From NCBI GenBank assembly GCA_008632985.1, contig QPGO01000155.1, forward strand, positions 124,001 through 188,000: 64,000 bases of DNA. Reading direction: 5' to 3'. This stretch comes from Psammoneis japonica (lineage: Eukaryota). The notes under the pieces were generated by a model, which was given only the letters and a program-made list of their open reading frames with translations, did not search any database and was not told the origin of the DNA. Shown piece after piece: positions 16,185 to 64,000 of the stretch; the first letter of the stretch is position 1; every line of letters starts with the position of its first letter. The translations under genes and the position numbers were made by a program.

Positions 16185-16423
16185 CTACTGCGTGTCGCGG
16201 CTTCTTCGCGCGCGCTGGTGGGGTGTTGTCGTGTATGCGCCCGCGCCGCAGGCGCTGGGAAAATCCGAATCGCGAATCTTTTCTGCTTCTTATTTCCGAT
16301 CTTTTCTCTTCTCAGAAGCTTTATGCGGTGTTGCGAGAATAAGCGAGACAATAGACTCCGAATTGTTTGTATCTCCTGTGTCACCCCCAGGCGAGTAGTT
16401 CTGAATCATATAAAGAGAGAGCG

Positions 16424-20661: not shown

Positions 20662-21757
20662 GTTGTTGTGATGGTAGCAATTGTGGCGCTTTTCTTTTTT
20701 TAATAAAGTGCAATGAGAAACCCTGAGTTATCAGTGTCCTCTATAACAGACTGGGTAGTTGACAGTGGGGCGACGGCGTTGGGTCATTCGTCTTGTCATA
20801 TGCGTCGGAGTCGTCTGGTCTAGCTCTGATGGTCCGAATGTTGCTGCGTTATTTTATTGTGTGCGTGTGCTGATGAGAGCGATGAGGCGTGCGTGATGTG
20901 TGTGCGGGAGCGGCGGTTGTGATGCGCGCACTTTTGGGTCGCGCCACATCATCATTGGCACGACTAACATTGAATTCACACATTCGGAAATAAATAAAGA
21001 TGAATGTGTGGTCGCGCAACATGACCCTACCAGTCGTGGAAGGCCGATTAGTTTGTTTCCAATTGATCCGTGCTCGGATTGAACGAGCCAGTGGATTGGA
21101 CCGGAGCACAGCAGAGTTAGCAGCCTTCCTCTTTTTTTCATGCTTTTAATGGAGTTCTTGCTTTTTACCTGGCGGGCTCTCGTTGCAACGGAGACTCTTC
21201 AGCTCAATCTCTTGGACGACAAGATCCGTGCTTCAGCCACCAAGCACAAAGAGCTTGCGCAGTGCCGATGGCTGTGCCGAACCAGCTGATGCCGGTCCAT
21301 CGCTTCCATTCTCGAACGCACTCCTGCTTGTCCACGTCTTGTCCAATGATTGAGAGGACATGAAGAGAGAAGCAGGTCTGGCCTGAAGCCATGCCGAAAG
21401 TGTTGAAGCTCATGACTGCAGCAGCACAATCAGAAAGCTGAATGTGCTCTGGGCCGATGATGTCACAAGTGTCCTTTTTCATTTTGGGTTGTCACAGCCA
21501 TTGTGTCTGAGTGCAAGAACAATCCACAGAAACAACAAAGTGTCTGTTTTTGCTTGTCTTCTAAGCGGCCAACAAAGAGCGCAAGGAGAAAGACAATCAA
21601 AGACGGATTTGAAGGTGTCGAACATGTCACACCTTGAGATCTTTGTGAGAAGTCCAAGGAAGCTCGTCAGACTTCCTGGATTCCTACAAGCACTTCCATG
21701 CTCGCATTTTCTTCCTTGCAAATGCTGTGCGTTGGGCTGTCGCTAAAGTGTGTTGTA

Positions 21758-21991
21758 AGTTGAGACACAGTCCCACAGCTGGGTGGGATGGATAAGACCT
21801 CGGAGGTTGGCAGCAATGTGAACAGCAACAGAGGTAAACAGACGCTTGTTCAAAGTCGTTGTCTAAAAATTATGACGAATGTCATTGCTTCTGTTTGAAT
21901 CAATTTTGTGATGAGCTGATCATTTCGAAGAGAAAATCTGAGTCTGGGTTGCAGTCGTGAGATGCGACCAGAATGACGTTGAGTCGCGACT
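21758..21991 (-). repeat. 3' LTR of element 1
   Basis: Direct repeat of 27933-28166, next to PPT. Confidence 0.95.
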
Positions 21992-22012
21992 CTCCCTCTC
22001 AACCGAGAGAGC

Positions 22013-25000: not shown

Positions 25001-27770
25001 GGTCGGCTTGAGATTGTCCGGTGAGCAGTCGGATGGTGGAGGCATTGTAGACGACTGGTCTGACACTTGCTTCCTCCAACAGTTCCACAGGATCTTGAAA
25101 ATGGGCAGTGTCCACGATGTGATTCGGCAGACAGAGCTCGTCAAACCGGAAGAAATCCGGGCTGAAGTCCTCAAGAGCGTCGAAGAAACATTTCTGGTCA
25201 TCGAGAGGTTCCAGTTCCTCACAGGTGTCAAAGAAGGCTGATTCGTCCATCGCATCAGACCGTTCAGCGACTTCTAAGCTCTCCCAGTGGGCCTTGAGAC
25301 GAGTGCTCAGTGCGTGTGACGGATGGCGCGCGACAAACTCGGTGAGCACTTGCGTGCCTTTGATCCTGTGACATTCGAACAGTGACCCCGTATCCAACAC
25401 TATCCGGTCATCTAGCTCTTCCACAACATGGTAGACTTGAGAGCTGGTGGTCGAAAAATGACTTGGTACGTTCGAGAATGGATGCTCGGGCTGTTGACCG
25501 GCGTAAACTGCTGACCATGCCATCACTGCAACGGACAGGACCATCCAGGAGGCTGGAAACCCGTGCAAAGTTGGGAGTTTGCGCTGGCGGCGTAGAGCTC
25601 GAGGGATGCATGGGATCGGAGCAAAGCAAAGATGCAGTGCCGTTTCCCAAAACATGGCGGCGAGCCAGAGTGTGAATGGCTTGACTCGTCCCAAGAGTGA
25701 GCGACGCAAAGTGGGCTCGTCTTTGACGTCCTCGTGACAATCATCCGCACCCAGGACCTCTGGATCGTAGAAATCGAAGCCACGACACGCAGCACACGGA
25801 GGTGAGTCGTAGCATGCGTCTTCAAAGTGTGCGTCATGTTCAAGGATGAGATCTAACTTTGTGTCGTCTGACAGCACATCTGTCAAATGTGCGGGAGCAT
25901 CATAGAACTCATCTGGATGCTTGACAGAGTACAGCTTCGAGGCCGGAAACAACTCAATAGCCGGTGGTTTGTTTTCAAAGGTGGAGAAAGCGTCGGAGCA
26001 TTCGCAGAAGTCATCGGCGTCTTCGGGAGTGACAGTCTCAACCACGATGGGAGACACGACTGGATCCACGACTGAGGTGAGTAGAGGTGGGCTCATTTTG
26101 TTGCAAACCACCTCAGCACTGATGACTGCATCGCTCTCCCTCTCGGCCAAAGAATCCGGAGTAACAACAATTGCAGTGGTGACAGGGGCGGAACAGAAAT
26201 CCGGGTCGGCAATGGCATCTGTAGCCGCGCACCACATTCCCGTGAAAACCAACTCGTTGGGGTCGGATTCGTCTCCCTCTGGTTCCTTGGCAGTCTGAGC
26301 GGGCGGACCCATGGGCACGCCACTGTCTGGATCAGCAACGGAAGACAAATTCCCGGCTGGGGTCTCCTTGGGAGGGCGCCTGTGGTCATCGGTGTGGTCC
26401 GCGGTAGAGTGCTTCTGGTGGATTCCAGGTTTGTCGGCACCCTTCGCCGTGCACGTGGCACACCACTTCCATTCCTTGCCATTCTTATCCTTCTTCGTTT
26501 CTCCGTCAAATTCAGTGCGCCAGGCAGCGATGGGTTGCCTCTTCTTCTTGGAAGGGTTGTCTGCAGGCGGCGGATTGGGAGGAGGATCGTCGCGCGGCGG
26601 TTTGGCGTTGCACTTTGGGCACGTCTTCTTGGTGCACCCCTCGAGACCGCAACCACAACAGTGCTTTGTCTTCCCAGGGTTGTCCGCAGTCGAAAGATTG
26701 CTCTCGGGTAGCTTGGCAACCAATGCAGGCCACTCCCCGTCCTTCACGAGCTCATTGTGTTGCTCCTGAATCCACGCAATGATGCCGACCGGTCCGAGTG
26801 TGTTGTGATCGCCATCGGACACGATGTCAGCAGGATTCTTGAGGCGGCACTTGCGTTCCACAGTCTTGACGTCGTCGAGCTTGTTGTAGACTTGCCGATT
26901 GAAGTGTTCAGAGGACGTAGAGGAGATCTTGTGGAGTGGCTTGGAGCTTGTGTTTGCCGGAAGCGCGCAGTCGGTCTGCACAATTTTCACGATGCGAAGA
27001 GCTTCGGCAGCAAAGTCCGTGCAATCCTCGCCGGGACAGTTGGCCAAACTGAGGTCTTCCAGCTGCTTCTCAGCCGTCTCAATGTCCATTGGAGCGCCAG
27101 TGTTGCAAGTGTCGAGAGCCATCATGAACAGAACAGATCCAGGGCAGTCTTGGCAGTCCGAGAGATGGTTGAACTTGGTCTCGATTTTTTCGCGAAAGGT
27201 GTTGGCGATTCTTGAGTGAACGAGAAGTTGAGAGAGCCCGATGTCGTCAAGCTCGATCTCGTTGTACTTGGTGTCATCGGCAGCTGCTTTCCTGGCCGTG
27301 TGCTCGTTCACGAGATCGGTCACAGTAAACTCGTGAAGATGGTCGAAGACACATTGAACCTTGTCGTCGCTGTTCTTGACATGGCAGAACGTCTGCTGAC
27401 CATGGGCTTCTGCTAGATCTCGAATGGTCTTGACGAAATGGCCCTTGTCAAGCTCGTTGATGGGACCGTCCGAAATCTCAAGTCAACCATTGAACTTGGA
27501 AGTCATTGCGGAAGCTTGTTGATCGCGGAGAGATCGTTCCATTGAGTCGAGAGCCTTGGGATGACGGCGCTGAGAGGCGAGTCGGCAGGTTCTGTTGTTG
27601 GATTGTTCGCAGCTGTTGTTGAGTTTGGAACCACCAATGTAAACCCCGTGGGTTGGGTGAATTCCACCACGTAACGGCTTGGTTGGAGCCGGAGGAGCGG
27701 TCGCCGCGGCGTTGGCGGCCATTGCGTCGGCAAACGCCTTCGCCAGAACAGCCGGATCGATGGTGGCCAT
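22013..27770 (-). pseudogene. gag-pol of element 1
   Basis: Gag from MATIDPAV (27770); zinc knuckle; protease MDAGAT; HARFGH; integrase VSVDH..FVDHASG..HHQNGVTER; RT ARHCVRGD, HGLKQSP, HVDD; RNaseH DSDFAG..SRTG, EDNS, ADQFTKGL. In-frame TGA at 27483, 22598 and 22178; deletion plus frameshift near 23775. Confidence 0.93.
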
Positions 27771-27932
27771 GACAGAGAGTGCAGTGTGAGAGGTTCTTGT
27801 TAGAGTGAAGACGAGAGAAGCGAGAGAGACTCAGCTATTTCCCGGGTTTGCTTCAAAATCAAAAACCGAAAGCGTCCGTGACGATGACTCGGTCAGGAGC
27901 TCTCGTCAACGCGCAAATTGGTCTCTGTGACC

Positions 27933-28166
27933 AGTTGAGGTGCAGTCCTGCAGCTGGGTAGGATGGACAAGACCTCGGAGGTTGGCAGCAATATGAACAG
28001 CAACAGAGGTAAACAGACGCTTGTTCAAAGTCGTTGTCTAAAAATTATGACGAATGTCGTTGCTTCTGTTTGAATCAATTTTGTGATGAGCTAATTGTTT
28101 CGAAGAGAAAATCTGAGTCTGGGTTGTAGTCGTGAGATGCGACCAGAATGACGTTGAGTCGTGACT
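27933..28166 (-). repeat. 5' LTR of element 1
   Basis: Direct repeat of 21758-21991; abuts a PBS-like ..ctctgtgacca on the + strand. Confidence 0.95.
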
Positions 28167-41539: not shown

Positions 41540-41886
41540 TGTGGGAAAGTAGCCAGAATTCTAAGATTCGTCTGCACTTTCAATGATTAAAAGCTGTAAT
41601 TGCGATACAACAATCAATCAGTAACTTTATTGTACCAAAAGTTGAGAGGTGATAATCAGTGCGTTAGAAAGATTATGAGCAGTTTTTATGAGCAGATGCA
41701 GCTGCCATCTAAAGGAAACGCGAAGTTAAACGAGCGCGAAGCTAGGAACAAACATCGCATTCGTGACTCGGCTTCCGCGGGATTCGAGACTGAGCATCGC
41801 ACACGGGGTTCGAATCTTGGATCTCTGATTTGAATCGTGGAGGTCCGATGTTGTTGTAAAAACATGCAAATATGAATATTGTCACA
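41540..41886 (-). repeat. 3' LTR of element 2
   Basis: Direct repeat of 47759-48105. Confidence 0.97.
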
Positions 41887-41929
41887 CTCCCTTCAACAAT
41901 GTCGGGTGGAATGATGACTCGAAAACGTC

Positions 41930-44900
41930 TTACCACTTAAGGAGCGATTTCCTGTGTTCGACGAAGAGATTCTGTGGTAGAGGTTTGGTGAAAATGTCTG
42001 CAATCTGATCCGCCGTATCAATTGGTAGAATTGATATGAGACCTTTGCGAACATGGTCTTTAAAGTGGTGGAGAGTGAGGTTGAAGTGTTTTGTCCGAGG
42101 ACGCATCTTAGGCAATCTCGCGATCTCCAATGCTCCAGAATTGTCTTCAAAAGCCTTACAATGTACGACTGGTGTCTTGGAAGGGACATTATGACCGTGA
42201 TCCATAAATTCTTGAATGAGGTTCAAAATTGGGGATGGCGCTTCGAAGACTTTCCGAAAGAGCGATAAATTCAGCTTCAGTAGTGCTGAGCGCGATCTGA
42301 GTCTGTAGCTTGGACGTCCAGACAATCGGACATCCTGCATAGGTGATGACAAACCCAGTTCGAGATTTGGAAGTGCCGACGTCATTGGGTGCAGTCAGCT
42401 TATTCCAATTGCCCACAAAGTCCGCGTCGGCGTGAACTTCAAGGGACTTGTCCGTTGAGGGCTGTAGTATAATACCTTCAGTTCTGGTTGACCTTAGGTA
42501 CTTACAGAGCCATAGTACGGCTTCACCGTGAGAAACCTTGGGATCGGAAGAAAGCGTGCGACTTGGTGCACCGCGTAAGCGATATCCGGTCGAGTGCTCT
42601 TCTCCAGAAAATTGAGCTTGCCGATGATGGATCGGTAATGAAAGCTCCCTTGGAAAGCAGGCTCACTCATATGCCTGTGGAGGATCTTGGAGGAAGGAGC
42701 AGGAGTAGGCTTATCTGGTAGTCTCTTTGGAATATTGGCTATCTCCAGTATCTGATTGATAAGGTGAGGTTGGGTAAGTTTCATTCTGCCGTCTGGTAGT
42801 GTTTCGACGTTGACACCGAGATAGTCGTCCAGAGTGCCTTGATCATCAATATCAAAATTCTCATCTCTGATATCCTGTATCGCCTTGTCAATAGCAGACT
42901 TGTCAGGGGATGCAAAGATACCGTCATCGACATAATGAATGAAAATGACATTGCCACGAAAATACAGGCACTCATCAACCGCCGATTGTACGAAACCAAT
43001 CCTTAACAATCCATCACGTAAGTGTTTCTTGCCATACTCTCCCTGCTTGCTTTTGTCCATATAAGTTCTTGAGCAACTTCAGAACATGAGTCTTACCATT
43101 GCCACATTTTGTTTCAATTCCTGCAGGTAACTCCATGTACATATCATGTTCGATATCGGCATGCGGATACGCCAGAACGAAGTCGACTTGGCGTGTATGC
43201 CACTTCTTAAGAATGGCAATGATCAGTAGGAGCCGGATAGTGAACCAGAAGACCACGGCAGAGTAGGTCTGGAAGTAGTTGACAGCATGCTCTTGCTTTC
43301 CACCGTGCACATTAAGTCGGGACTTCCATTTGTAGACGGCTTGGGTCTTAATATCTCTTTTGCGCTTCATAGACCATACCGAAGGGAGAACATCAACATC
43401 GTCAGGTACGTCCTCTCTTGGAATGAGTATCCAATGTTTCCTTTCAATATGATCATTGACCTCCTTAACACAGGCCTTGATAAATTCGTCTCTGTCAGGT
43501 TCACGCATAGCCTGATCAAAGTACATGGTGTCGGGGTCCGAGCTCGCCAGAAAAGAGATAGGTGAGTCCATATCGTCCTGCAGTTTGTAATCATCCTCGT
43601 GCATCGCATCATAATGTGCCTCTGCCTCTGCATTGTAGGAGACAATGCCTTGAGCCCGTTGTAGTTGGCTCTCGCGCATCCTTTCGGTCGGGCGTCGTTG
43701 TCGGCCGGACCTACTGGTGCTGGGTTGACCCATAGTGCGCTGTGGCTCAGATGGTGCGTCAGAATCATCTGGAGGCGTGTATAGCATTTCATCATCCGGT
43801 TGGGCATTATCAAATGAGTCATCAGTGGCAGACGTATCAGTGGGGTGCAGCAGCTGAGACGGGACATCCGAATTCGGCTCAGGTGGTTCCGTTGTGGTAG
43901 GGACTGATCCCTCAACCGGTACGTCACTTGATTTCCCAAAGATGTTGAAAGTACTCCTTGTCATGAGTTGTCTGAAACCTGCAATGCCTTGCCATTGTGA
44001 GAATGTAGGAGGATTCCCAGCAAAAGGGCGAACGGTCTCAAAGAAGTCGTCAAATTGTACGTGAAATTGCGGCGATACGAGTCCGGTCTGCAAATTCAAA
44101 ACCAAGGTAACTGAACCTGCGTGTCTTGTTGATGGTCCCAAATTGATTCCTAACCTTGCCCTTGGGTCCCACTTAGGCAGCCTACCTCCTCCCTGCAACC
44201 GGTTGTGCAAGGCGTAGACGGGACAGCCGAAGGTATGGTGTTGTTTGAGATTAGGCTGGACCTTGACGGACGAGAAACGTTCCAGCGGAGAAGAGCCGTC
44301 CTCGTGATTCGGTAAGTGATTCTTGATCTCGTTTGAGTTCCTGAGAGCGCTTGGCCATAAGTTCAACTCAATAGCCGTTGGCCATCTCACTTTTGCATGC
44401 AGGAGTTGCTTCCGAGATTGCTCTTGGAGGTCCCTTATTCTTTTCTCCGCGATGCCGTTTTGGAAGTGGGCGTTGACCCCACAATAGGATATTGTTTGCT
44501 GTTGCTTCTTGACGTCTTGTATGAAAGCATTGTCAGCAAATCTTCCATTGTCGGCGTGGTAGTGTTGAATACGGACGTGCATCCGGCGTGCGAATGCCTC
44601 GAAAGCGTGCTTGGCTTCGAGCGTCTCGGCTGAGGTAAGTCCTTTCTGCAAATACATGTGTCCCAATCCGCTGAAATGATCAACAAAAATTGTCGCTGCT
44701 CGATACCTTTGTTTCGTAGGTCTCCCTTTGAGCTGTGGGATCAATCCAGGAGTAGGACTCTCGAGCTGGTCGACGGATACGGCTTCTCCAGGCGAAGTTG
44801 CCAAGTGGATTCGTCGGTTCCGCTTGGACTTGGAGCGCCATGGTCGTTTCGTCATGGCACCGTATAGGCAGCCGGCACATTTTGGGTTGTGTACCTTTGT

Positions 44901-46190
44901 AAGGCGTTTCGGTAGAATGCCTAGGGCGGCCAATGGCTTTATCATTTTGAATGACATGTGGCCCAGGCGGCAATGCCAACGCAACAGTTCACCCTGGTCA
45001 TCTGTGGCAGCAAGGGCGTCATCATTTGGTGTGATGTTGATGGGTTCCGGTAAGTCCTGCTGTACCTCCGGTGTCGTGAAATCCCTTAGGTTTTCCTCGT
45101 CTGAGTCTGAACCACTTGCTCCGTCTGTTGGCTCAAATGAGACAGGAGCATCCTCATCAGTGGTGTTGCGTGCGTCTTGCGTCTCGGAAGGACGTGTCTC
45201 GGATGGACTTCTGAAGACGTCTGTATCAATTGCAGCCTCGTCATCATTCGCAATGCTCTCGTCGTCTGGTGGTATGATGTGAGCTTGACAGGCCACGTGC
45301 TCGATAGTTTCGATGTCGGTTTGTTCTTCGACAGCGGCTGCAAAGGTCCGGCATTTGTTGGAACCGGGTGCGGAGCGCATCTTGGCGACATTGGAGTTGG
45401 CGGACCATGGAATCAGGCGATGGTGCTTGCGCTGATCCCACATCAGTGACAGTCCGTCGTCCCTAGTCCAAGATGCGGTTCCGTGAGGCTCTGGCGTGTG
45501 GTCATTAGCTTGCTGGCTCCATTGCTGCGGGCAGAGAAGACAATGAGGTAAGTCGGGTGCATGGAGTGCGTCTCGAATTTTGATGCTGTGCACTTGTCCC
45601 ATGTCGTCCTCAATTGCCCACTGCACTGTTCCTTCTCCCTCAGCACGCAAGCAGCCCTTGACACCGAGTGCCATTTTGTTGGATTTGCGAAGAGGACCAA
45701 CGAAGTGTGCCTCGTCGTTGGACATGGTGCAGGAAGAATGCGAGTCGACGCCGATTGCGAATGAGCCCGAATCGTAAGTGGGCTCCGTTCGCTCGGGACG
45801 GTGTGGTGTGGTTGAGTTGCACGCTCCAACCGTCTTGTGTCGTGCAATGACATGGTGAGCCTTCTTGGTGGCCACTCTGGAGCGGTGACCTGGCCTCGTC
45901 GACGCATGACACCGTGCGCAGCACCTCGTCGTTGGCCGTCGCTGGCAAGTCTTAACTCGTCTTGTGCCTGGTTCAGCCAGGACATGTGAGATGACCCACT
46001 CACCCAGCGTCATCACGGCATGTGACAGGCGCTTGCACTTTTCTGAAGGAAGGGACAGCATCATGAACAGCAGCATGATCCAGATCGGTGCTGCACATTT
46101 CATGACGCCAGCGACCGCCATCAGGAGCACTGACACAGTGACGGCCATCTGCAAGGACAGCAGCAGTGTCAGAGTGAACCTGCAGAGCAG
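41930..46190 (-). CDS. pol of element 2 (PR-IN-RT-RNaseH) with frameshifts in RT/RH
   Basis: VDSHSS protease, WHCRLGH, VSVDQ..FVDHFS..HFQNGIAEK, FGCPVY, KSRLNVHG, LYGQKQAG, YVDD, TRPDIAYAVHQ, SRTG, EDNSG, IADIFTKPL. Confidence 0.93.
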
Positions 46191-47684
46191 TCACTCCACT
46201 TCGTTTAGGATGGTAGAGATGGCACTTGCGAAGGAGACTTTCTTGTCCGACGTGTCTGTGGATGGAGCAGACTGTTGCTTGCGGAGTCTGCAGCCTTGGT
46301 TGCCCGGATCATCAGGCAAGTGCATGACCCAAGCAGTGTGACATGGGCACCAGTGATGGTCGCGATTGTTGACGCGCTTGTGACAGCACTGATGGCCGTT
46401 CACTGTCTTCTTGGGAGTGTCCTCCTCAGGCGGGACTTTCTTCCAGGCTTCGTCCGCTTTCTGTCTCTGACGTGGAGTGGTCTTGGTCTTCCTTGACCGT
46501 GTGCTTCTTTCCTTGGTTGAGCCAGCCTTGGCCTTCAAAGCTTCAGACAGCTGAAGGTTCTGATCCTTGATGGAGTCTGCCTTGGCTGCAAGCGCGACGA
46601 TTTGCTCTTCAGCCGGTGACAGTGCTCCCCACTTCTTCTCGCGCTTGAGGTCAGCACATTTGTTCAGTGCCAACGTCATGATTTGCGTCGGCGTGAATTC
46701 CTCGCCGTCGTCACACCTGTCCTTGTGCAACATGATGCACTTGACGAACACTTCGTCAGCAGCTGCGGCGCATCCTTTGAATGGATTCATGATGAGGTCG
46801 TCGCACTGCTCTCCTCTAGCTTGGAGTCTGTCAACGTTGAGCTTGGCGCACTTGTTGAACTCTTCGATGTCCGAGTTGACAGCTGCCGCGCAGGTGTCCA
46901 GGCTTGACAAATTCTCGCGGAAGCAGTCAGCGGCAGAGCGTGTGTCAACGACGGCCTTTTGCGCAAGTGGCTTGAAGAACAGTGTGCCGATTTGATTTCC
47001 ATTGATCGTGCAGGAATCTGTCTCAGCCAACATCTTGTCTCTTGCTTCCTCCGCAAGGGATTGAGAGATCGCCTCGGCCATCTGCACATTGTTCTGTGCT
47101 TGTCGCACAGGTGGATTCGCGAAGGCATTCGCGTGGGTTCTTGCATCCTGTGGAGTGAGCAGTCCGCACTCGGAGATGAGATCTCGTGGAGCTCCATTTG
47201 CGTCGGGAATGGCAAGCATGTCTCCTGCCCCTGTTTTCCATCCTGCCTCGGCAGCTCGTTGACTGAGTGTCTCACAAAACCGTTTGAGACCTTCTGAATC
47301 GCCGTTGAACTCGTGCGGCAGCGGTGCAGTGGCGGCGTTCCAAAGCTTGAGGCCTTGCGATGTGCCGCAGTCAATGAAGTTGTTGGGACGGTGTTGACCT
47401 GGAGTCAACGCGAAGATCGGCAGTGGCGGCACAGGTGCCAATGGTGGTCCACCTGGCGGGGCTCCACCTGGTGGGACTCCACCTCCGCCTCCACCTCCTC
47501 CGCCACCTCCTCCTGGAGGCACACCGGGAGGAACGACTGGGGGAGGCACAGGAGCAACTAGAGCGGCTGCAGGAGCAGGTGCTGTTGCCGGAGCAGCAGC
47601 AGTGGCAGGAGCTGCAGCGGGTGCAGCAGCGGGAGCTGCAACAGAGGCAGCCAGAGCAGCCGCGGTTCGTGTCTGTGTGACCAT
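46191..47684 (-). CDS. gag of element 2 (497 aa, no Tyr)
   Basis: Ala/Pro/Gly-rich N-terminus, FALTPG, WC..H..W..H..C knuckle; lies between 5' LTR and pol. Confidence 0.88.
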   Translation of the reverse strand: MVTQTRTAAALAASVAAPAAAPAAAPATAAAPATAPAPAAALVAPVPPPVVPPGVPPGGGGGGGGGGGGVPPGGAPPGGPPLAPVPPLPIFALTPGQHRPNNFIDCGTSQGLKLWNAATAPLPHEFNGDSEGLKRFCETLSQRAAEAGWKTGAGDMLAIPDANGAPRDLISECGLLTPQDARTHANAFANPPVRQAQNNVQMAEAISQSLAEEARDKMLAETDSCTINGNQIGTLFFKPLAQKAVVDTRSAADCFRENLSSLDTCAAAVNSDIEEFNKCAKLNVDRLQARGEQCDDLIMNPFKGCAAAADEVFVKCIMLHKDRCDDGEEFTPTQIMTLALNKCADLKREKKWGALSPAEEQIVALAAKADSIKDQNLQLSEALKAKAGSTKERSTRSRKTKTTPRQRQKADEAWKKVPPEEDTPKKTVNGHQCCHKRVNNRDHHWCPCHTAWVMHLPDDPGNQGCRLRKQQSAPSTDTSDKKVSFASAISTILNEVE

Positions 47685-47758
47685 AGCAACAGCAGAGTAA
47701 AGCAGAATCGAGAGCTTAAGATCGATTGACTCAACTTGTAGATTGCGCAGAGGAAGCG

Positions 47759-48105
47759 TGTGGGAAAGCAGCCAGAACTCTAAGATTCGTCTGCACTTTC
47801 AGCGGCCAAAAGCTGCAATTGCGATGCAACAATCAATCAGTAACTTTATTGTGCCAAAAGTTGAGAGGTGATAATCAGTGCGTTAGAAAGATTATGAGCA
47901 GTTTTTATGAGCAGATGCAGCTGCCATCTAAAGGAAACGCGAAGTTAAACGAGCGCGAAGCTAGGAACAAACATCGCATTCGTGACTCGGCTTCCGCGGG
48001 ATTCGAGACTGAGCATCGCACACGGGGTTCGAATCTTGGATCTCTGATTTGAATCGTGGAGGTCCGATGTTGTTGTAAAAACATGCAAATATGAATATTG
48101 TCACA
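47759..48105 (-). repeat. 5' LTR of element 2
   Basis: Direct repeat of 41540-41886 with 10 A:T>G:C differences. Confidence 0.97.
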
Positions 48106-48110
48106 ATCGT

Positions 48111-53290: not shown

Positions 53291-54819
53291 CGATTTTTTA
53301 GAGCGGGACCAGCAATCGTCGAGATACTACGTACAGGCATCTCATAGGTTTCCTGCTCCACCAGAAATTACACCAAAATTGACCAGCAGAGATTCGTGAC
53401 GCAAGGTGGTTGATGGGCTTGGATCTCAAGCTCCTACAAGAGATGTCAAACTGATGCTCGTCATGACTCATGGAGGATGCAACGGTAAAACTTCATGACA
53501 GTGCCATCGCGTGGGATCCAACATGGCCTCGTGAACTGGACGTCAACGTAGGACGGTGCATTTCTCTGAACGACATTCTTGAGTGAAGCGAGCCGGTGAG
53601 TTTAGCATCGTTGCACCCAGTTCGCTGCTCGTAATCCCTGCGGGAGAACTCAAGGGTGGCACATTCTGGATCTTCTGCTTCGACCTGGAGGCCTGAAGGA
53701 CATATTTTTTTCTTGACGCTAAAAGATCATCTCGACTCGTGCAACCGGCAGAGAGCCTTTGCGGGATCGACAAAATACACGAAAGAACTGCACTGGCGAG
53801 CGACAGAAAACAGCTTTTCGGCAACCTCAAACCGATGCTCTTCTTTTGATTTTTGATCAAGTTCTGCAGTTGTACTTCTGTTTCTAAAACCAACATGGAC
53901 TTAATATTCTAAGACCAAACATGGCTGCTATCCTTCACGACTTGTTGACTCATCGGTACGCACGCCATTGTGCACTCCGCATTTTTTTTGGGCAGGATGT
54001 CGTCAGTCCGTCGCTTCTCCGTCAATTTGAACAATCGCTGTGGTGCGTGGTGCACAGGCTTGTGCGTGGTGCACGACGCGTGCTGTGGTTACGGAGAACG
54101 GTCGCGCATTGTCTGTCGGTGGTTGTAGGAACAGTTGCAGTTGACTAGATTGTAAAGAACAACATGGCCAATCAAACCAGGTTGCTTTCTCTAGGGCTGA
54201 GTGCTTTTCTGGGGGCTGAAAAGCTCTGCAGCCAATCACCCGACTTTTCGAAAAACTCACTCCAAAGAACCCCTCATCTTGTTGGGATGCCAACAATCTG
54301 GCGGGTCTGTGACCGCCTGCTGCAATCCGGGCATTTCCTGACTGTAATCCCAGACAAGTGTCTCTCATTGAGTCAGGTTCTTTTTCATTTCAGTTCAGAA
54401 CCAATTTGGTTTACAGGCTCCTTGTTTCTAAATTGCACCCTGGAGCCTGCTTTGAACAGCGGCCATGTTCTTGTGCCTCTGCAACCCCGCGTTTGGCCTT
54501 TCTTGACAGTCACTGTGTTTGGTCGCTCCTTCATTTCATCTCATGCTGCATGTGATGCAACATCAGCACCTGAAATGTCCTTCTAAATTGCATCCATTTG
54601 CAGCCCAACAAACAGCATGGTGAGCTTCTCATTGTCACAATGAAGCAATTGCAGTCAAAGCAAAACCATGAGACTTGGCAGCCTGCGCACCTTTGCTTCC
54701 TGTTGCAACATTCCTGAGGTCTGAAAGCTTGGGGAAGAATCTCTGCAGCTGTTGGTTTCTCTCTCAAATCATCTGCCAAGGGAAGGCCAAAGGATGCCAT
54801 TGTGAACAAGTGTCTGGAT

Positions 54820-55096
54820 GACTTGCCTGGCATCAAACAAATGCGATGGACCTTTGCCTGGCATCAAATGAACACAAGGGACCTTTGCTTGGCATCAAAC
54901 AGCTGCTGAATGCAGCGGACCTTTGCTTGGTGTCAAACAAATGCAACCTGCCTGTGCTCAGCATTGAAGAATGAATGTGATGTGCCTTTGCTCAGGATTG
55001 AATGAACATGGTGCACCTTTGCTGGGGATCAAATGAGTGCCTCACTTTGCTCAGCATCAAATGAATGTGACAGATCTTTGCTCAGAGTCAAATGAG
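54820..55096. repeat. Degenerate ~30-bp tandem repeat, about 9 units
   Basis: Recurring cctttgc(c/t)(tg/ca)gcatcaaa core. Confidence 0.7.
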
Positions 55097-58000
55097 TTGA
55101 ATTTGAATTTCACAATGGAGCATCACAAACGCACTTTGCAGTCACTTGGCTCTTCATCTCATCCTTGTTCTTTTCACTTCAAGAACTCTAAAATCAGCAC
55201 TTTGTCAAACCCAGACTGCATCAGCATGACACATTGTTTTAAGTTTCTGTTTGCTCTGACTTTTCTGGATCACTGAAACTCAGGCAGGAAGCTTTGGAAG
55301 ACACTGGACAGAATGGGGCTGGGCTTCCGTTTTCAAAAAACAGCGAAAGCACTTGCATGCTCTTTTGTCTGCTGTGGCTTTGACTGTTTCAATTTGCCTG
55401 TCACCAATCAATTGTTCAACACAACAATTGCCGGCAAGTGCCAGCGCCCCGTGGACTTTTGACAACAGAATCAAGCAACTTCAATCTTTGAGCTCACAGC
55501 TCTGCCCTCTCCAGCAGGGAGCACTGCAGCTTGAGAAACCTGCTGCATCAGCTGCACACACCAACAAAAGCAAAGCAGGAGTGGCCCTGCACTCTCTGAA
55601 GCAGTTGCTGAACAATCTCGCCACTGGGTCCCCACAGGAGCTGTTTCTGTCATCCAAAGAACCATTCATTGTGCACGACTTCATGTTCTCAAGTGGAGTT
55701 TCAAGATTTTGCAAAGTTTGCTGTCACATCCAGCACAAAATGTCAACCAAAATGTGTGCAAACTGTCTCTTTCCTCATGCATTGCCAGCTCTCAAACTCG
55801 TTGGTGTGATGGAGCATTTTGACATGGTTGCCCCATTTCGCCCACTGGAAGAACCAACATTTCACACTCCTTTGTTGCTTGTTTGTCTCAAAGATGTGCT
55901 CCACTTTTGCAAAAAAATGATCATCATCAAGTCCTTCCCTGATGAGGGCTTTGATTGCTCCCTTGCTGAACTTCATGTTGGTCCTGCATTTGACACAACA
56001 CAGAGCTTGTTCACAAAAAGCAGTTTTGTGGCTTTGATTGTGAGCACTTGTCAGTCATCAGTGCCACATCATCTCAATGGGCAACAGCAGGCACTGCAGG
56101 GTGCTTTGCCACCTCCGGGCACAAGCGCACCCTTGTCATCTTGGTGCCTCAGTGATGAAGGATGAAATTTCATCTCAGGCTGAAAGCTCAACTTGGTGCT
56201 GGTCTTCTTGGAGTGTGAGAACTTGTGGCTTTTGTCATCTCTGCTGCTGGCAGCAACCACAACTTTGGCCTTGGTCTCCAGGCATTTGGCATTCATCAAC
56301 TGTGTGAGGCCAGTTTCTGCAAGCACTGAACGCAGCACTTGCAACTCTTTGGAGTGAATGTTGAACCCACAAGCCAGTGTTCCCAAAAAGGAATCCTGCC
56401 AGGCTTTGTGTGCCTCTTGACACACTTGTCTTGGTTGGTGGCAGTGGCTGTGGTGTGATGAAAGTTGTCAATGTGAACTTCAATCTTGCGGTGCACAACA
56501 GGTGCCCAGTGATGCCAAATGACAAACCAAATGATTCCATCCAAAGAGCAAGATGAAGCTGAAAGGTGAGAGATCAGCAATGGCGAAACTTTTCCCGGTG
56601 GTGCATTGAGGGGGTTGCCCATGGTGCATGAAAGATGCAAAGGCTTCAGACTTTCTTCTTATCAGCTGCTCACAGCAGTTGTGAAACAGCAGAAAATGAA
56701 AACTTGCAAGTGTGTGTGGCAAGAGTGAGCACCACATGATGATGGGGCATTGGCAGACAGGGCAACAAGCAGTGGCCTCTGCCAGCCAGTGGCTGTGAAG
56801 CAGCAGCACAGCACTCACCAAGGAGGGGACACTGCATCAGTTGTGGGGCTGCCCAGCAGCAGGGCCATCTGTGTGGCACCATCAAAGCAGCAGCAAAAAT
56901 CACCAGGCATCCCCACATGTTCCACCAACAAGTCCATCTGAGAGCAGGTGTTTGTCACAACATCTCAGTGACCATGTCAACATCAGACCATTTGAAGGCC
57001 AACAGCTGGGTTTTTGATGACTCAGTCAGGTCAAGGAGGACAAAGCAGTCTGTTGGGACAAATGCATGCTTTCTCTGCTTCCACCTTCTCAGCTTGCTTT
57101 TGCAGCCCAAGAGCTCAGGCTCACAGCACAGCAAGAAAATGAGGCCACTTCAGATGCAAGGAGTTGTTGAGGCAGAGGGGCAATGTCAACAAAAAAGAGC
57201 TCTGGGGTGTCATGTTTTGGCGCAGGCTTGCACTGCCACTGCACAAGCTGTGCTGCTGCCTTTGAAAGTCAAAACTGTTGAAACAGCAGCAATTTTGGGC
57301 AATCTGGGAGCAGCCATGATCACAGTTGGCATCAACGGCTTTTCAGTTGCTTGGCATGACATCACTTGAAAGTTGCAGTGTGCTCACTGTCATGACAACA
57401 AAGGCAAAGCTTTCCTTGGCTGCACATGGTGTGTGCACCTTGCTTGGGCACAACAAACATTGCTGGCAATTGTCAACCTCACAAGGAGCACACATGCCCT
57501 GCATTGAGAGGCACCCCCAGTCCTTTGCAAGGGTGCAGTTTTGTGGCTTGTGTTCATTTGCTGTGCAGCTGTTGCTCTTGCACTCATGCATCAGTCTTCA
57601 TCACAGAGCCAACAGGCTTCAGGCTTTCATGCCTGTTGTGGCCTGATGCTTGCAGCAACAGTTGTTTCCTTTGCTGAAATGGGGTGGTTGGTGCTGCACC
57701 ACTGCACTTCAATTCAACGGCATCAAAATGAGAGACAAATCAACATCTGAGGCCGTTTGCCCAGTTTTTGATCACTTGCACTAAAAGGGTGTCATTTGCT
57801 CTCAACTCAAACACCACTTTCTCATCTGCTGAGCTGCTGTTTGTGTGTTGGTGCAGCTGGGCTGGCTGCATGTGCTGTCAAGCCAATTTTCTGCCTCAAT
57901 GGCAAGCTCTTCTTTTTCCCATTGCTTGCCAGTCAGACTGGAAAATTTGAGAACAACAGCCACCTTTGGCACATCTCCATCAACTGGAGGGGGGCAAGAC

Positions 58001-58668
58001 AGGAAGCATCGCCGCTTTTTTCACTGTCCCAAGAACTGGTGAGATGGTTGTGACAGAGAAGAAGTGCCCATTTGATGGCAGGCACATGCTGCTTTGCCTT
58101 CAGCACACATCTGCTGGGCTGCATTTTTTTCTGGCAATGTTGGCACACTTTCAAGGGCAGCAACATCTGCTCTGCCAATGAAGGCCCCCAGCACCTTCTA
58201 AAAAGGCAGCTCTCAAACATGCACAATCTTTGCTGCATCAAGCATTTTGGGTGGCTTGGTGGAGGCAAACCAGCTGCAAAACAAAAATGGCTCAGAGCAT
58301 TGCCAACTGCAAAAGAGCCTCAAATGCACAAAACTTTTTGTTGTCAAGCTTTTTTGTTGAATCCCAACTGCTTTTGTTCTTTTCAGAATGAAGTCCAGTG
58401 TGCACATCTCTGCACTTTGTTGCCATGCCAACAACGTCCAATGTTGGCACCATCACGGCTCACACACTGCCTCTTTGCAAAGGCATCATCACAAGCAGTG
58501 GTGCTGCAGAGTGTTTGCATGATGTCCTCTGTCTGGAAGTCTCTGTGCTGCTGTGCACAAGGAGCCATGTCTGTGGACAATTTGCAAAAGTCGTGCAGAT
58601 CAGGGCACATGTGCTGTGCTCTCATGGATCTGAAGACAGCTCTTGGTGGCACCAATGACCCCCCCCCC

Positions 58669-58865
58669 NNNNNNNNNNNNNNNNNNNNNNNNNNNNNNNN
58701 NNNNNNNNNNNNNNNNNNNNNNNNNNNNNNNNNNNNNNNNNNNNNNNNNNNNNNNNNNNNNNNNNNNNNNNNNNNNNNNNNNNNNNNNNNNNNNNNNNNN
58801 NNNNNNNNNNNNNNNNNNNNNNNNNNNNNNNNNNNNNNNNNNNNNNNNNNNNNNNNNNNNNNNNN
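58669..58865. other. Assembly gap
   Basis: Run of N. Confidence 1.
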
Positions 58866-61800
58866 GTGCCTGACTGTTCTTTGGTCTTTCATGACATGTT
58901 TGTTGCAAACATTGCCAGCTCTCATGTCAAGATGGCATTTCAAGATGGTGCCATTTGGTTGAGGAGCAAGGGCATCTCACCGCCCATGCTGTGAGCATCA
59001 TGTGGGGAAGGTGTGCAAATCCAGAGCAAGACAGGGAAGCAAATCAGCAGAAGAGCCTCTCATTGTGCAGAGCATGGGTGGCCAAAAGAACCAACTGCTG
59101 TGTCAGCTCATTTTCTCCACACAAGGGCAACACCATTGTGGCTGTGATCCTTGTGAAGAGCCCACCCTTGGTTTCCCAAGTTTTGGTTGTGGATTTTTCA
59201 TTCTTGATTTTGGTGTGAATTTGCTCAAAATTGTGGTTGACAATGTTCCGCCATTGCAGAGAATGTGCAGAGGCTTGTTCTTTGCTTTGCCCAAAGAGGT
59301 GCTCACATGAGTGATGACTGCTGGACTGGTGTGAATTGCTTTTTTGGGGCTTCCCAATGTCCAGCAGTGCGCAAGACTCCTCGAGCAGCGCCAGTTCAGA
59401 ATCACTGCACATCACAAGAAGTGGGATGTGGCGGTGCTGTTGAAAATTCTCCAGCCAATCTTGTTCTTCAATGCAACTGGGAGAGTCTGCTTGCATGTCT
59501 GGGCAGTTGAGGCTTGGAAGCAGTTGGAAATTAATTTGTCAAGACAAAGAAAAAGCACTTCCAAGATTGCTGCAATCAGCTCACAAGTGTTTTTGAAATG
59601 GCGGAGGGTTTTGTGGCAGGGTTGTCCCAGAAGAAATTTCCAAGAAAGGAGATGGGTTTAGCACAGATGCCAATGACACCTGGAAGAAAGAGAGGAACAA
59701 GTTGTTGGCAGCACTGTCAATGGAAGGTGTCAAGAAACATTGGCTTGTCTCAAAAGACCTGTGCTGGCAATTTGCACTGGGATTCACAATTGTCCCATTT
59801 TGGCCAAGGAGGCACTGCAGGTGTTGGACACAGGCAGGGCCAACAAAAAACCTGAGGGCACAAGTCTTGTGCAAAATGAGAAGAAACAGCTCAAATGCAA
59901 AAGGTTGGGCATGTGAAAAAGGACTGTCCTTTGCTCAATGACAACAGCGATCATTTGTTGGTGGAGACACATGACATCAGCTGTGGAGAGAAACAAGGCA
60001 GTCAATGTGGCACTGGATGGCATGGTTTTCAAGTGTTGTCCTCCTGCAGCCAGTGTGCATGAGGCCAATCCATTGATGGTGGCTTGTGCAAAGGAGTGTG
60101 TTGGAACATTGGGGAGCAAGGCAGTTTTCAACAATTGTGGATGAGGTGAAGTTGCACTCACATGAACTTTTTGTGAGTTGTGGGTCTTGTGCTCACTTTT
60201 CAGCTTTTGCACCTGCTGGCCAACATGGCAACAGTGGCAGCGGCAATGGAAATGCGGTGTTTGCAATCCACATGCGGCAAGTTTGGGGATCAGTGAGACC
60301 AAGTGTGTGCCACATTCAGCAAGCTGTGGAATCACAGCACCGCTGCAAGACCCCCCTCTGAAGTTTTTTTTGGCACAACAGGCTCCTGCAAAAGGTCAAA
60401 AGTGCCCACAAGTGGCCAATCAAGGTCCCACACAGAAAGCATGCAGGTCCAAGGAAAGGAAGCCATTCTGAACATTTTGGCCCAGTGTCACAAGGCCAAT
60501 CTCAAAGCCACCAACAGCTGTTCATTTTCACTGTTCCATGCTGAAATTCACATGTGTGGTGCGTCATCCACAAAAAGGCTGCCCCCACACTTGGAAACCA
60601 AAAAGGCATTTTCTGTGCTTGTCATGAGAGAAAAAAAACATGATGCTGTTGGTGCGCACACACTTCTTGATGCAGACAATGCTGTCTTGCACCTTGATCA
60701 ATGGTGCGACAACCAACACATGATCAAAGAACAAGCCCCATGGCAGAAGATGCAGCATCATTGTTTGTTGTGCAATGTGCATTGCATTGGGCACAATTTC
60801 AAGTTGTGACATCATGCACCATGGAAATTTGTGGCTTTTTGTGCAGTGATGAAGCACAGCACAGTGAACTTGACACCTGCCAAGAAAACAGCAAGCATGC
60901 AAGAGCTGCATGTGAGCCCAAGACTCGGCCTCAACTTGCCAGGATGTGGTGGTGCAAAGTGCTCAAAGTTGCCACAAGGATGTTCAGATTCTCAGCTTGC
61001 CAAAGTGAGGTGACTTTGCCAAATCTGACCTGCCAACCACCTGGAGAGGCCAGGTGCCACCCTGTCCTCTTCTTGAACAACTCTGAGCTAAAGCCTGCCA
61101 GCCAACATGCAAAGGAAAAAGTTGAGAAGGCTGGGTGGTTGTCTGCCAGGGAGTCTGAGCATCTGATGGCTCAATTGCACAGATGCACCTGCTGCTTGGC
61201 TGCTTTAAAAAAGAAAGAGCTGTGCAGAAACAAGTGTGAGACAATGAGCATGCTTTTGCGAGATTCTTGCTGGCAATGGCACATGTGCCATGCTGGCAGA
61301 CACACCAGACAACTTGTCAATCTGCAGAAAAATGCAGCAATTGGCAAAAGTGCGCCACTCACAAGTGTGCTTGTTTTGTTTGGCAATGGGGCCTGGATTT
61401 GACTTCATTCTAGAGTTCCCCAATTTTGCAGCAGAGCTGCAGAAAGTCTCTCCCACACACACACCAGATGACTTGTTCATTGAACAAAGCAAAGCAAGGG
61501 ATTTTTTTTCTGACAGAGTGGCAAAATCATGCTCAACAGGAGCAAAAAAAAGATCCACATGTCTCTCTTTCTTTTTCAACACAGACAAAACCAACAAAAA
61601 AGAGGGTGCTGCAGTGTGGCAGTCACCAAGCAAACAATTTTGCAAAAAGTGTTTCCAAAGAAAGTCTGTTGGGCCTTGTTTGAGCTTTTGAGCAAGGGGG
61701 GCTCTGGGGGGCACAATGCAGCAAGAGAAGCAGAGCTGGTTGGAGGCAGCATGATGATGTGTGTTGTGCAAGCAAGTTTGAGTGGTGGACCTTTCCCCAA

Positions 61801-62517
61801 TTTTTGTTGCTTCTTTTCTCATGTTTGATCATTTTAAAGTGCTTGAGCAGTGTGAACAATCTTTAAAAGGTGGTCATTTTTCCTGAAAACAAAGTGACAG
61901 GAACAAGCTGCTGTGTGGCTGCCACTGGTTTTGCTGCCTCTTGGAGCCATTTTTTTTGTCTCTTCTGCTGCATTTGGCTGTTTTTAACAAGAAATGTCAG
62001 CATTTTTTACAGTGCAACAAGGAGCTCAGATGCAAAAAGTGACTTTCTAACTGAAGTCATTTGGACAGAACAATCAGGAGAGCTGAGTTTTGCTTTTTTT
62101 GGTGCACACCATTGGCTGTCAGAAAGACCAAGTGGTGGTTCGCTGACCTGTGTGGGAGTCTTGTGGGTGATCTGCATGCTGGCATTGAAAAAAGTTTGTT
62201 GACTGTGAAGCAACTGTGCAATGTGAAAGACAGCAGAAGAGGTGACAACAAAATGTTGACAAATTTCAATGCTTGGAAAAGAAGTTTTGCCTCAGACAAG
62301 TGAAGCAAAATGGCCACAACATCTGGACATTGCCAATGTTTTTCATCTGGCTTGCAACATTGGACACTTGTTGCACTTGCCCACGGCATTTTGGTTGTCA
62401 TGCACCACCAAAGCTGAGTGCAAAATCTCTCTTTTTTGTTTGCACAAAAAAAATTGATGTCATCCATGACAGCACAATGCAAAAAATGTGCAAGTGCATG
62501 AGTCACCAAGACACTCT

Positions 62518-62588
62518 CCTGTTGTTGTTGTTGTTGTTGTTGTTGTTGATGTTGATGATGTTGATGATGTTGATGATGACGATGATGT
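62518..62588. repeat. (GTT)n/(GAT)n microsatellite
   Basis: Direct reading. Confidence 0.9.
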
Positions 62589-64000
62589 TTGCAGCTGGTG
62601 CCAAGTTGACAGAGACAAGGGTTGTGAAGAGAAATCTAAAGGAGTTCCAGAAAGAAAGACACCAAGCATGCAAACATCAGCGAGCTCTCCACAAAACAAA
62701 ACAAAACAAAGCCACAAAGAGCAACTCAAATTGCAGCCAAATGACCAAGTGGGCTGCAGCCTTGGGCTGTTGACCTGTCTTAGAAAATGAAAGTTGCCTT
62801 CTCACCTTGGTTGCAACAGCTGTTGGTTCATAAATGGCAGGGTTCATGGCAGCAGCATGGTGCATTTTGGTGTGCGCAACTTGCAACTTGAGTCACACAA
62901 AACACATCATCTTCATTTTGGAGCTCAGCAGTTTTCTTGCGCGGGTTTGGCACCAAACATGATGCAGAACACACAGAAACAAACCAAAAACCTCATGATT
63001 CATTCTAAAGTTTCTCATTTGGAGATCTGTCTGCCCCAGCAGTGGTGAGCTGCAAGTGGCACAATGCCAGCAAATGGCAGTTCCATGCACAAGCACTGGC
63101 CAACCTTTGCGAGACTGGAGGGCTTTGTTGTTTTGCAGCCACGTTTCTGTGTGAATGTTGGCACAACAAAGTTTGTAAAAATGCCCAGCTGATTGACAAA
63201 AACATTGCACACTGCACTCAAAAGTGTGCTGGCTGGCACAACTGCTGTTGCACTGGATGTTTGCAGGCACTCAGCACACAAGAAAGAGAGGCAAGTTTGG
63301 CGCCAATGTTGGCTCCTCCTGTCATGGTGGTGAGTTCCCCCACCCAAGCAACCATGGGCTGCTTTGACTGGCAATCATCATGATTTTGCCTCAGTCCAAG
63401 TTCCAAAGACACACGCCATCAAACACACACTGGAAACCTGCCTCTGTTGTGTGGGGCGGGGAAGACCTCACAACAAGAATGACTTGGCTCCGGCAGATCA
63501 CTCTGATTCGCAATGAGGAAGAGAGGATCCACTCGCCCTTGACAGACAACTGAAGTGACCACTGCAATGGTGGCGACAATGTGTTTCAAAGAGTCAAATG
63601 GCAATTTTGTGTGCTTTGTGCAACTGACAACTGAGCAAAGTTTGTCCAGGGTTCAAATGGCACGAGCTCCGAACTCCCGAGACTTCCTTCCTGCAGCTGG
63701 ATCGCACAACAACAGCACTGCGGTCAGCAAGCAAGACAATGACGATGGTGCTTCTGTGTCGCGACGACGACTCTTTGTCTCTTCCTTGGTGACAAACTCA
63801 TCCATCATGGCTGAGGACAGCACAGTCACAATGCCTCCTTTTGTCCGTTTGCATGTTCCTTTCATCATGCGTGACAACAACGCATGCCATTGAGCCGGTG
63901 CGTTTTGAGGATCTTCTCAGCAATGAAGAACATCGTCATGCAGCCTCACCACCCTAGACCGAGAGCCCGAAGGATGTGAAAGAACTCTACACAAGTCAGC

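Follow-up and report, generated by a model that had tools for sequence, protein, structure and literature searches.

TpA hypermutation in sharp-edged tracts at a diatom locus, next to a block of about 9.5 kb nearly emptied of both TpA and CpG

We analyzed a stretch of 64,000 nucleotides from the Psammoneis japonica assembly GCA_008632985.1 (contig QPGO01000155.1, positions 124,001 to 188,000), hereafter called the window, whose right end is formed by a block of about 9.5 kb nearly emptied of the dinucleotides TpA and CpG (TA and CG in counts). The genes of the window are intron-poor and eukaryotic and code for a PP2A B56 subunit, LMF1, GDA1/CD39, and a short-chain dehydrogenase. The PP2A B56 protein has its best named relatives in the diatoms Amphora, Nitzschia, Cylindrotheca, Cyclotella, and Stephanodiscus (83 to 88% identity), and this gene content indicates that the window is diatom nuclear DNA. 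Scanning for Rfam families and tRNAs gave no matches in the window. By comparing the window with itself, we found two pairs of long terminal repeats (LTRs), which delimit two copia retrotransposons, called here elements 1 and 2 (Table 1). A 3-state segmentation by TA/CG state separated a doubly depleted state, in the block, from tracts depleted in TA only. In total, the window holds four or five sharp-edged TA-poor tracts, two of which are copia elements, while the rest of it is normal. As detailed below, TpA is converted to TpG or CpA by a hypermutation that acts on integrated DNA in such sharp-edged tracts.

Table 1. Features of the window (positions are those of the window)
Feature	Coordinates	Strand	Basis and remarks
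Third TpA-only tract	14362..16183	-	10 TA, GC 54%, coding period-3 signal
TpA-poor stretch outside the 3' LTR of element 1	21000..21757		4 TA in 21170-21757; downstream overrun
Element 1, copia LTR retrotransposon	21758..28166	-	LTRs 21758-21991 and 27933-28166; RVT_2, integrase-associated domains, copia profile hidden Markov model (HMM)
Element 2, copia LTR retrotransposon	41540..48108	-	LTRs 41540-41889 and 47759-48108; RVT_2, integrase-associated domains, copia HMM
Hypermutated tract of element 2	44950..47855	-	From last ~95 bp of 5' LTR, ~2.9 kb downstream
Left edge of block	54155..54530		TpA rare already, CpG at about half density
Core block poor in TpA and CpG	54180..63400		Counts, segmentation; TG = CA, GC 47%
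31-bp tandem arrays	54823-54901 and 55017-55097		In core block
Scaffold gap (N run)	58669-58865		In core block
TGT/TGA microsatellite	62520-62589		In block
Right edge of block	63400..64000		TpA poor (2 TA after 63176), CpG near-normal; tract leaves window
Doubly depleted state	54494-63662		3-state segmentation
TA-only depleted tracts	14362-16183, 21170-27956, 44943-47683, 63663-63998		3-state segmentation

Within 54180-64000, we counted 27 TA, against 660 ± 19 (minimum, 597) in 1000 mononucleotide shuffles, and 89 CG (90 if counted across the N gap), against 545 ± 18 (minimum, 496). Both counts lie far under all 1000 shuffles, in agreement with a preliminary description of this DNA, which had reported the near-emptying of both dinucleotides over some 10 kb. 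In 2-kb bins of 54001-64000, the observed-to-expected ratio (o/e) was 0.02 to 0.08 for TA, 0.08 to 0.33 for CG, and 1.7 to 2.1 for TG/CA. Elsewhere in the window, if three further tracts poor in TA (o/e, 0.13 to 0.2) are left out, it was about 0.4 to 0.75 for TA and 0.8 to 1.2 for CG. The longest TA-free run (1430 bp, 59659-61089) includes 60001-61080, where the absence of TA had been noted at the outset, and further runs measure 1420, 1333 (crossing the N gap), and 1122 bp. The sequence of the block is complex rather than low-complexity, and its tandem arrays are short.

From the normal DNA of the window to the block, the joint share of TA and CG among dinucleotides falls from 9.84% to 0.93%, and that of TG and CA rises from 14.5% to 23.2%. 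A loss of 8.9 points against a gain of 8.7 points fits a conversion of TA and CG into TG/CA, as the preliminary description had proposed for these two palindromic pyrimidine-purine (YR) steps. The doubly depleted state retains 21 TA and 63 CG next to 1042 TG and 1038 CA. Its GC content equals the background because the loss of TA adds G/C while the loss of CG removes it; in the tracts depleted in TA only, GC is raised to 54 to 57%. Among the other dinucleotides of the block, GC is more frequent and AT less frequent than in normal DNA, which agrees with TAC->TGC, GTA->GCA, TAT->TGT, and ATA->ACA.

Such figures could also reflect composition rather than mutation, if the block were a contaminant, a misassembly, foreign DNA that avoids TA and CG, or the product of selection. 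In favor of this, the origin of the block was not recovered, a scaffold gap lies inside it, and all reads come from a single sample. Contigs derived from the reads of one public sample, probably that from which the window was assembled, cover 30 of the 30 bins of 50001-64000, and 0.81 of the sampled 31-mers of 52501-62500 are present in the contigs of one public run. The junction is covered at flank depth: in most of the block, contig depth is 54 to 145 (mostly about 85 to 145) versus about 91 to 98 in the flanking genes at 52.8 to 54.2 kb, and a contig joining 54041 to 54138 exists (n = 1). Since the sample is probably the source and hence not independent, this cover argues weakly against misassembly. 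A stronger argument against a contaminant is the occurrence of the same TA loss in three more tracts among ordinary diatom genes. Furthermore, LTR pairs polarize the TA loss as mutation, the mass balance fits conversion, and the block has no coding signal for selection to act on. Overall, we find a compositional origin scarcely credible.

The LTRs of one element are copied from one template at insertion, and later differences between them record postinsertion events. In element 1, which has lost TpA over nearly its full length with CpG intact and a GC content of 54%, the LTRs are 94.0% identical and become 99.6% identical once YR steps are collapsed. Thirteen of their 14 differences lie within YR steps, 11 of these positions being former TpA sites and 2 being CpG. 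Five sites read TA in one copy and TG or CA in the other, and two read CpG versus TpG/CpA. At three further sites, one copy has CA and the other has TG, indicating independent mutations of an ancestral TA in each LTR. In element 2, the LTRs are 96.9% identical, with 0 differences over about 250 bp. All 10 differences fall within 85 bp (47769-47853) of the 5' LTR, beside the TA-poor interior, and in 10 of 10 the 3' copy has A/T and the 5' copy has G/C, 5 of them being TA->CA or TA->TG. Both LTR pairs are nearly identical except for TA versus TG/CA, so the two elements are very young, and the differences at mutated sites mean that TA was lost after integration, quickly, and by transitions. This speed can be gauged only indirectly: the LTR of element 2 shows no further difference over about 250 bp, while the tract of the same element has lost about 35 TA/kb.

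That the mutation acts in situ is thus supported by the differences between LTRs of one element and by the independent changes, and also by the tract of element 1, which covers the entire 3' LTR and extends 590 to 760 bp past it. These observations bear on editing of RNA or cDNA before integration, by ADAR-like or APOBEC-like enzymes, with fixation by retrotransposition, which we consider very improbable. Edits of this type would be shared by both LTRs and confined to the element, whereas here both LTRs stem from the same template segments and yet differ at mutated sites, three of which were mutated independently in each copy, and the tract reaches beyond the element. Both strands are equally affected, the tract of element 2 lies in the 5' part, opposite to the gradient left by APOBEC3G in HIV minus-strand cDNA, and the block has no LTR structure. 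What speaks for pre-integration editing is that the clearly identified targets are retrotransposons and that A-to-G changes with a 5' U or T are typical of RNA-editing adenosine deaminases, a point found also in the main text of a preprint on Bigelowiella natans (bioRxiv 10.64898/2026.01.13.699255).

The direction of the change, A->G or T->C at TpA, is supported by the polarized LTR pairs, by the mass balance, and by the fate of tyrosine codons. Using a copia HMM built from 30 of the 150 relatives returned, we found 0 Tyr, 9 His, and 8 Cys at the 29 consensus-Tyr positions covered by element 1, compared to 18 Tyr, 4 His, and 0 Cys at 32 such positions in the untouched part of element 2. Likewise, tyrosine makes up 0.2% of the long frame of element 2 in its mutated part and 2.6% in the remainder. 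When TG/CA was allowed to revert, the HMM scores of element 1 rose from 223 to 278 bits and from 411 to 560 bits, while a reversed-HMM control rose only from 18 to 42 bits; the in silico back-mutation suggested in the preliminary description for recovering ancestral sequence thus worked on this element.

Element 2 offers mutated and untouched DNA side by side. Its tract, which spans gag and the first part of pol, contains 5.5 TA/kb versus 40.6 TA/kb in the remainder, and the roughly 35 TA/kb lost are matched by gains of 20 TG/kb and 18 CA/kb. The edges are sharp: TA keeps its normal density as far as 44940 and is sparse from 45051 on, the changes end at about 47855, and susceptible TAT/ATA sites deeper in the 5' LTR were left unmutated. 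A similar boundary is seen in element 1, whose 5' LTR has 3 mutated sites in its last ~35 bp and 1 in the other ~180 bp, while the stretch of the 3' LTR matching those ~180 bp has 4. In both elements, the start of the tract therefore falls within the 5' LTR close to the internal end, the expected place of R/U5, and the tract continues downstream from there. This suggests, from two elements, a link to LTR transcription or to an RNA guide.

The near equality of the TG and CA gains in element 2 and of the TG and CA counts in the block shows that both strands were mutated equally. We had suspected a strand bias from an excess of GTAG/GTAA among the survivors of element 1, but rejected it, as untouched element 2 has the same skew. 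When untouched element 2 served as a proxy for the ancestor, TA survival in element 1 was 7% for ATAR, 38% for GTAR, 63% for YTAR, 16% for YTAY, and 4% for RTAY (R, purine; Y, pyrimidine). A strand-symmetric half-site model fits the survivor counts, with ATA (= TAT) mutated at about 90%, GTA (= TAC) at about 50%, and YTA (= TAR) at about 20%. The order of preference is hence TAT > TAC > TAR, and YTAR sites survive longest. Of the 25 TAs that survive in the block (54180-63662), 20 are of the YTAR type, versus 15% in normal DNA, and seven read TCTAAA. Since these survivors share the flank signature of the copia tracts, the same process most likely emptied the block.

TpA being palindromic, sequence cannot separate T->C from A->G, and the preference is equally writable as ATA > GTA > YTA. 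The target could then be thymine, if TET/JBP-type enzymes oxidized T at TpA to 5-hydroxymethyluracil (5hmU) or 5-formyluracil, which would mispair with G and give T->C; 5-formyluracil is promutagenic in this direction, and base J and dinoflagellate 5hmU favor T before A. The five element 2 LTR differences that are not at TpA are informative here. They lie at 47778 and 47802-47807 (four within six bases), one of them makes a new CpG, and each affects an adenine, on either strand, that is followed by T (AAT three times, GAT, and CAT). They thus share A-then-T but no single T-centered context, a weak argument (n = 5) against thymine chemistry, which we regard as unlikely. They also raise the point that the +1 base may weigh as much as the -1 T in targeting. 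The anticodon loops of TadA/ADAT substrates present a U-A-C context that is similar to the TAT/TAC preference. Enzymatic deamination of adenine to inosine, read as G, as proposed for B. natans, would most likely be the chemistry and is our leading guess.

Loss of TpA is not coupled to loss of CpG. The young tracts have lost about 87 to 96% of their TA and no CpG, their CG density being 63 to 67/kb (63.5/kb in the tract of element 2) compared to 53/kb (52.8/kb) in untouched element 2. CpG loss is therefore a separate, slower process. This bears out the proposal of the preliminary description that TpA is lost faster than, and separably from, CpG, which is further supported by the 11 TpA-site positions versus 2 CpG positions in the LTRs of element 1. 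The edges of the block agree with it. On the left, TAs at normal density end at 54126-54192, while CG is dense to 54117, at about half density to 54524, and rare beyond, so that the transition first placed at about 53900 to 54600 was roughly right. On the right, CG, correctly described as rare until about 63400, returns from about 63414, where TA is still rare. The TA-poor domain is wider than the CG-poor domain at both ends (54155-54530 and 63400-64000), which again separates the two processes; younger insertions at the block edges would give the same pattern.

One deaminase of dual specificity, fast on A at TpA and slow on C at CpG, would account for the coincidence of both losses in the block, and the B. 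natans preprint (bioRxiv 10.64898/2026.01.13.699255) refers to ADAT2-type enzymes with activity on A as well as C. The surviving CpGs of 54494-63662 are, moreover, skewed to GCG/CGC (GCGC, GCGG, GCGA, and TCGC), while TCG/CGA contexts are nearly gone (TCGT, TCGA, TCGG, and CCGA). From normal DNA to the block, for instance, TCGT drops from 222 to 2 and GCGC from 99 to 11, at a length scaling of 0.24. This skew could come from flank-biased methylation or deamination, or from new CpGs created by rare non-TpA A->G changes. However, a single enzyme is difficult to reconcile with young tracts that are drained of TA without any CpG loss, with edges of TA loss and CG loss that differ at both block ends, and with environmental copia loci in which CG o/e is 0.02 to 0.3 at a TA o/e of 0.7 to 0.8, since CpG decay there needs no TpA process. 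We judge the dual enzyme improbable, somewhat more so than thymine chemistry.

In the window, CpG loss is confined to the block (CG o/e, 0.08 to 0.33 versus about 1 elsewhere) and ends in TG/CA. In Phaeodactylum, DNMT5a is reported to methylate transposable elements at CG, and methylation of transposable elements is also described in Fragilariopsis and Thalassiosira (PMC9998398). Many environmental copia loci are extremely CpG poor (CG o/e, 0.02 to 0.2) with normal TA (TA o/e, 0.65 to 0.8), and drainage of CpG without that of TpA is common in other hosts. Taken together, the methylation of diatom transposable elements and these CpG-poor, TA-normal copies make deamination of 5-methylcytosine the economical reading, and probably the right one, for the CpG loss of the block. 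The CpG-poor, TpA-normal metagenome loci include L070, L058, L071, L059, L074, L076, and L073.

Pfam searches with the 75 stop-to-stop frames of the block of at least 70 amino acids (aa) gave 0 matches at the cut-off and none that was transposon-like, and a plain hmmsearch with the copia HMM found no match either there or in the intervals 14000-16400 and 20900-21800. A copia alignment aware of the ancestor, in which TG/CA may revert to TA or CG, scored 107 to 120 bits in the block against 98 to 134 bits for the reversed-HMM control; the translated recovery of ancestral elements that the preliminary description had envisaged thus failed here. After collapsing YR steps, self-comparison showed neither an LTR pair in the block nor a match to elements 1 or 2. 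The longest frame of the block (301 aa) returned no homologue, and a frame of this length is reached in 14 to 15% of Markov simulations. The Cys/His/Gln-rich frames to which attention had been drawn are therefore near what chance gives in sequence free of TAA/TAG, with 6 frames of at least 200 aa versus 2.0 expected (P of about 0.01 to 0.02).

Period-3 signal was absent in 16 of the 17 block windows of 900 bp (z, -1.4 to 2.4), and the remaining window overlaps the microsatellite. In comparison, z was at least 6.2 in 12 of the 13 windows of element 1 and reached 15.9 in the tract at 14.4 to 16.2 kb. When we simulated full draining of TA and CG plus 30% random change, four of five coding stretches kept their period-3 signal largely intact; in the fifth, LMF1, the signal was absent even before draining. 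As draining spares the signal, the block is not simply element 1 with CpG loss added. It is either of noncoding origin or much older and disrupted by indels. The series of stages first proposed for the window is thus only partly supported: the TpA-first separation is seen in the elements, but the placing of the block as their end state is not supported.

Considering these data together, we think it likely that the block is a repeat that was silenced, or an island of heterochromatin, within the nuclear genome of a diatom, saturated by two separate transition processes. One is a burst-like, targeted hypermutation of chromosomal DNA, presumably an enzyme-driven defense, which turns TpA into TpG or CpA (A->G on either strand). 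It works in discrete sharp-edged tracts with a strong preference for 5'-TAT, then TAC, then TAR, and kills retrotransposons by missense (Tyr->Cys/His) and not by new stops. The other is a slower decay of CpG to TpG/CpA, most likely by deamination of 5-methylcytosine. The mutational reading is well supported for TpA and plausible for CpG.

Several points weigh against this reading. The datable elements are only two, both on the minus strand, in one window and one sample, and five of the 10 LTR differences of element 2 are not at TpA. The expected counts rest on proxies, either window genes or untouched element 2. The ancestry of the block was not recovered, and its TA and CG losses follow from composition and neighbors, not from sites polarized one by one; the CpG loss could have been fast or could be older than the arrival of the block. 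Finally, among 80 metagenome copia loci, 0 had a Tyr->Cys/His pattern or a 1.5-kb window with a TA o/e under 0.29, although the peptide patterns that fetched these loci favor intact copies.

Hints of hypermutated copies in other assemblies came from the 150 representative copia relatives, of which we kept the 102 with at least 8 consensus-Tyr columns and dropped 48. Replacement of Tyr by Cys or His was found in 2 of the 102, namely, P0125 (3 Tyr, 8 Cys, and 4 His of 18) and P0232 (1 Tyr, 3 Cys, and 4 His of 8), while P0243 is Tyr poor by composition only. The three copia-like proteins are nearly devoid of tyrosine and come from three different public sources.

Known systems share parts of this picture. 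In Neurospora and other fungi, repeat-induced point mutation (RIP) changes C to T in CpA or another context of C, makes TpA, lowers GC, and creates stop codons. Like RIP, the process seen here consists of dense transitions in a dinucleotide context that hit integrated repeated or mobile DNA in one or a few inactivating bursts and leave a compositional scar. Unlike RIP, it eliminates TpA and TAA/TAG stops, raises GC, and inactivates through missense changes, and we therefore did not retain fungal RIP as a candidate, the young tracts having changed in the reverse direction. The decay of CpG in methylated transposable elements is similar to that of the block in its CpG o/e of about 0.1 with a gain of TG/CA in a repeat island while genes stay at about 1. 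Here, it is superimposed on TpA loss, and its survivors are skewed to GCG/CGC. Somatic hypermutation of immunoglobulin genes in vertebrate B cells starts from deamination of C by the activation-induced deaminase (AID). It resembles the present case, in two elements, by a deaminase-type tract that begins a short distance downstream of a promoter and covers a few kilobases, and differs in that the proposed target here is A.

The closest parallel is B. natans, in whose mutation-accumulation lines, according to the preprint, integrated giant-virus and virophage regions mutate about 1000-fold faster than the remaining genome, almost all changes being TpA->TpG/CpA (Mettrop et al., bioRxiv 10.64898/2026.01.13.699255). 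The same source reports 124 TpA-depleted clusters genome-wide, an enrichment of reverse-transcriptase domains among TpA-depleted genes, and a proposed ADAT2-like adenine deaminase. Common to both cases are the TpA->TpG/CpA change, discrete tracts of invading or repeated DNA in an otherwise normal nuclear genome, and a local rise in GC. B. natans is, however, a chlorarachniophyte (rhizarian) with viral targets, while the window comes from a diatom (stramenopile) with copia LTR retrotransposons. Depletion is also deeper here (TA o/e of 0.02 to 0.2, compared to a Rho of 0.45 given for the B. natans region of nucleocytoplasmic large DNA virus origin), with a flank hierarchy of TAT > TAC > TAR and sharp edges from within the 5' LTR. 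The main text of the preprint does not use the words flanking, context, trinucleotide, CpG, retrotransposon, or diatom; its supplements may hold context data. Our literature searches retrieved TpA hypermutation only in this preprint and nothing for diatoms.

Chromosomal A:T-to-G:C rewriting at a defined motif has thus so far been reported once, in a chlorarachniophyte preprint of 2026, and the window places this process in a new host lineage and in a much more advanced state. To the mutation-accumulation data it adds the end state reached at saturation, a ranking of the flanking motifs, sharp-edged tracts with their anchor in the 5' LTR, and a TpA loss that is independent of CpG decay. If true in diatoms, the process would point to a wider eukaryotic genome defense that is chemically opposite to fungal RIP. 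We tentatively envisage an "inverse RIP" of diatoms, a possibility rather than a favored conclusion. In it, a DNA adenine-deamination defense, anchored by transcription or guided by RNA, would proceed from the LTR transcription start and erase TAT/TAC on both strands over a few kilobases in a single episode, with slight spread into the flank. Together with CG methylation, this would leave old repeats free of both YR steps. As a rhizarian alga shows the same signature, the system would be either ancient in the SAR group (stramenopiles, alveolates, and Rhizaria) or convergent. Several diatoms are genetically tractable, making knockouts of candidate deaminases or of T-oxidizing enzymes possible. 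If inverse RIP were true, a natural genome defense based on DNA adenine editing would for the first time become accessible to genetics in a host group that can be transformed. For annotation, tracts free of TAA/TAG yield long spurious open reading frames with no tyrosine and an excess of Cys/His, and their raised local GC makes them mistakable for genes or foreign islands.

The third TpA-only tract (14362-16183) contains two neighboring minus-strand frames of 314 and 243 aa. Neither matched Pfam, and the frame at 14505-15449 had no homologue and no Atlas match. The tract may be a hypermutated gene, mobile or host, of no recognized family.

Inside the block, some bins have a higher contig depth, about 300 at 55.6 to 56.5 kb and about 390 at 59.3 to 59.8 kb, and the summed depth reaches about 1400 to 1560 at 58874-59340 and 59808-60274, versus about 100 in most surrounding bins. 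With the many loose ends and 59- to 64-bp skips near 60113-60215, this suggests a short high-copy or variable tandem motif near 60.1 to 60.2 kb, at least for the latter bin. Directly outside the left edge lies a 19-bp tandem repeat (GTGCGTGGTGCACAG...; 54043-54089), and one contig has 14 different letters in place of 54042-54137, possibly an allelic length variant.

Contigs of a further run, X2 (labeled "DNA?"), skip 215, 108, 107, and 82 bp at 51700-53970. The skipped segments begin with CT and end with AC, which on the minus strand reads GT..AG, and by these spliced joints X2 behaves like a transcriptome. X2 gave no cover over 54.2 to 63.5 kb, from which we draw no inference on expression of the block. 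An expressed, spliced minus-strand gene ends about 200 bp from the block, and it contains direct repeats (52249-52631 with 52927-53292, and 51178-51329 with 51331-51482).

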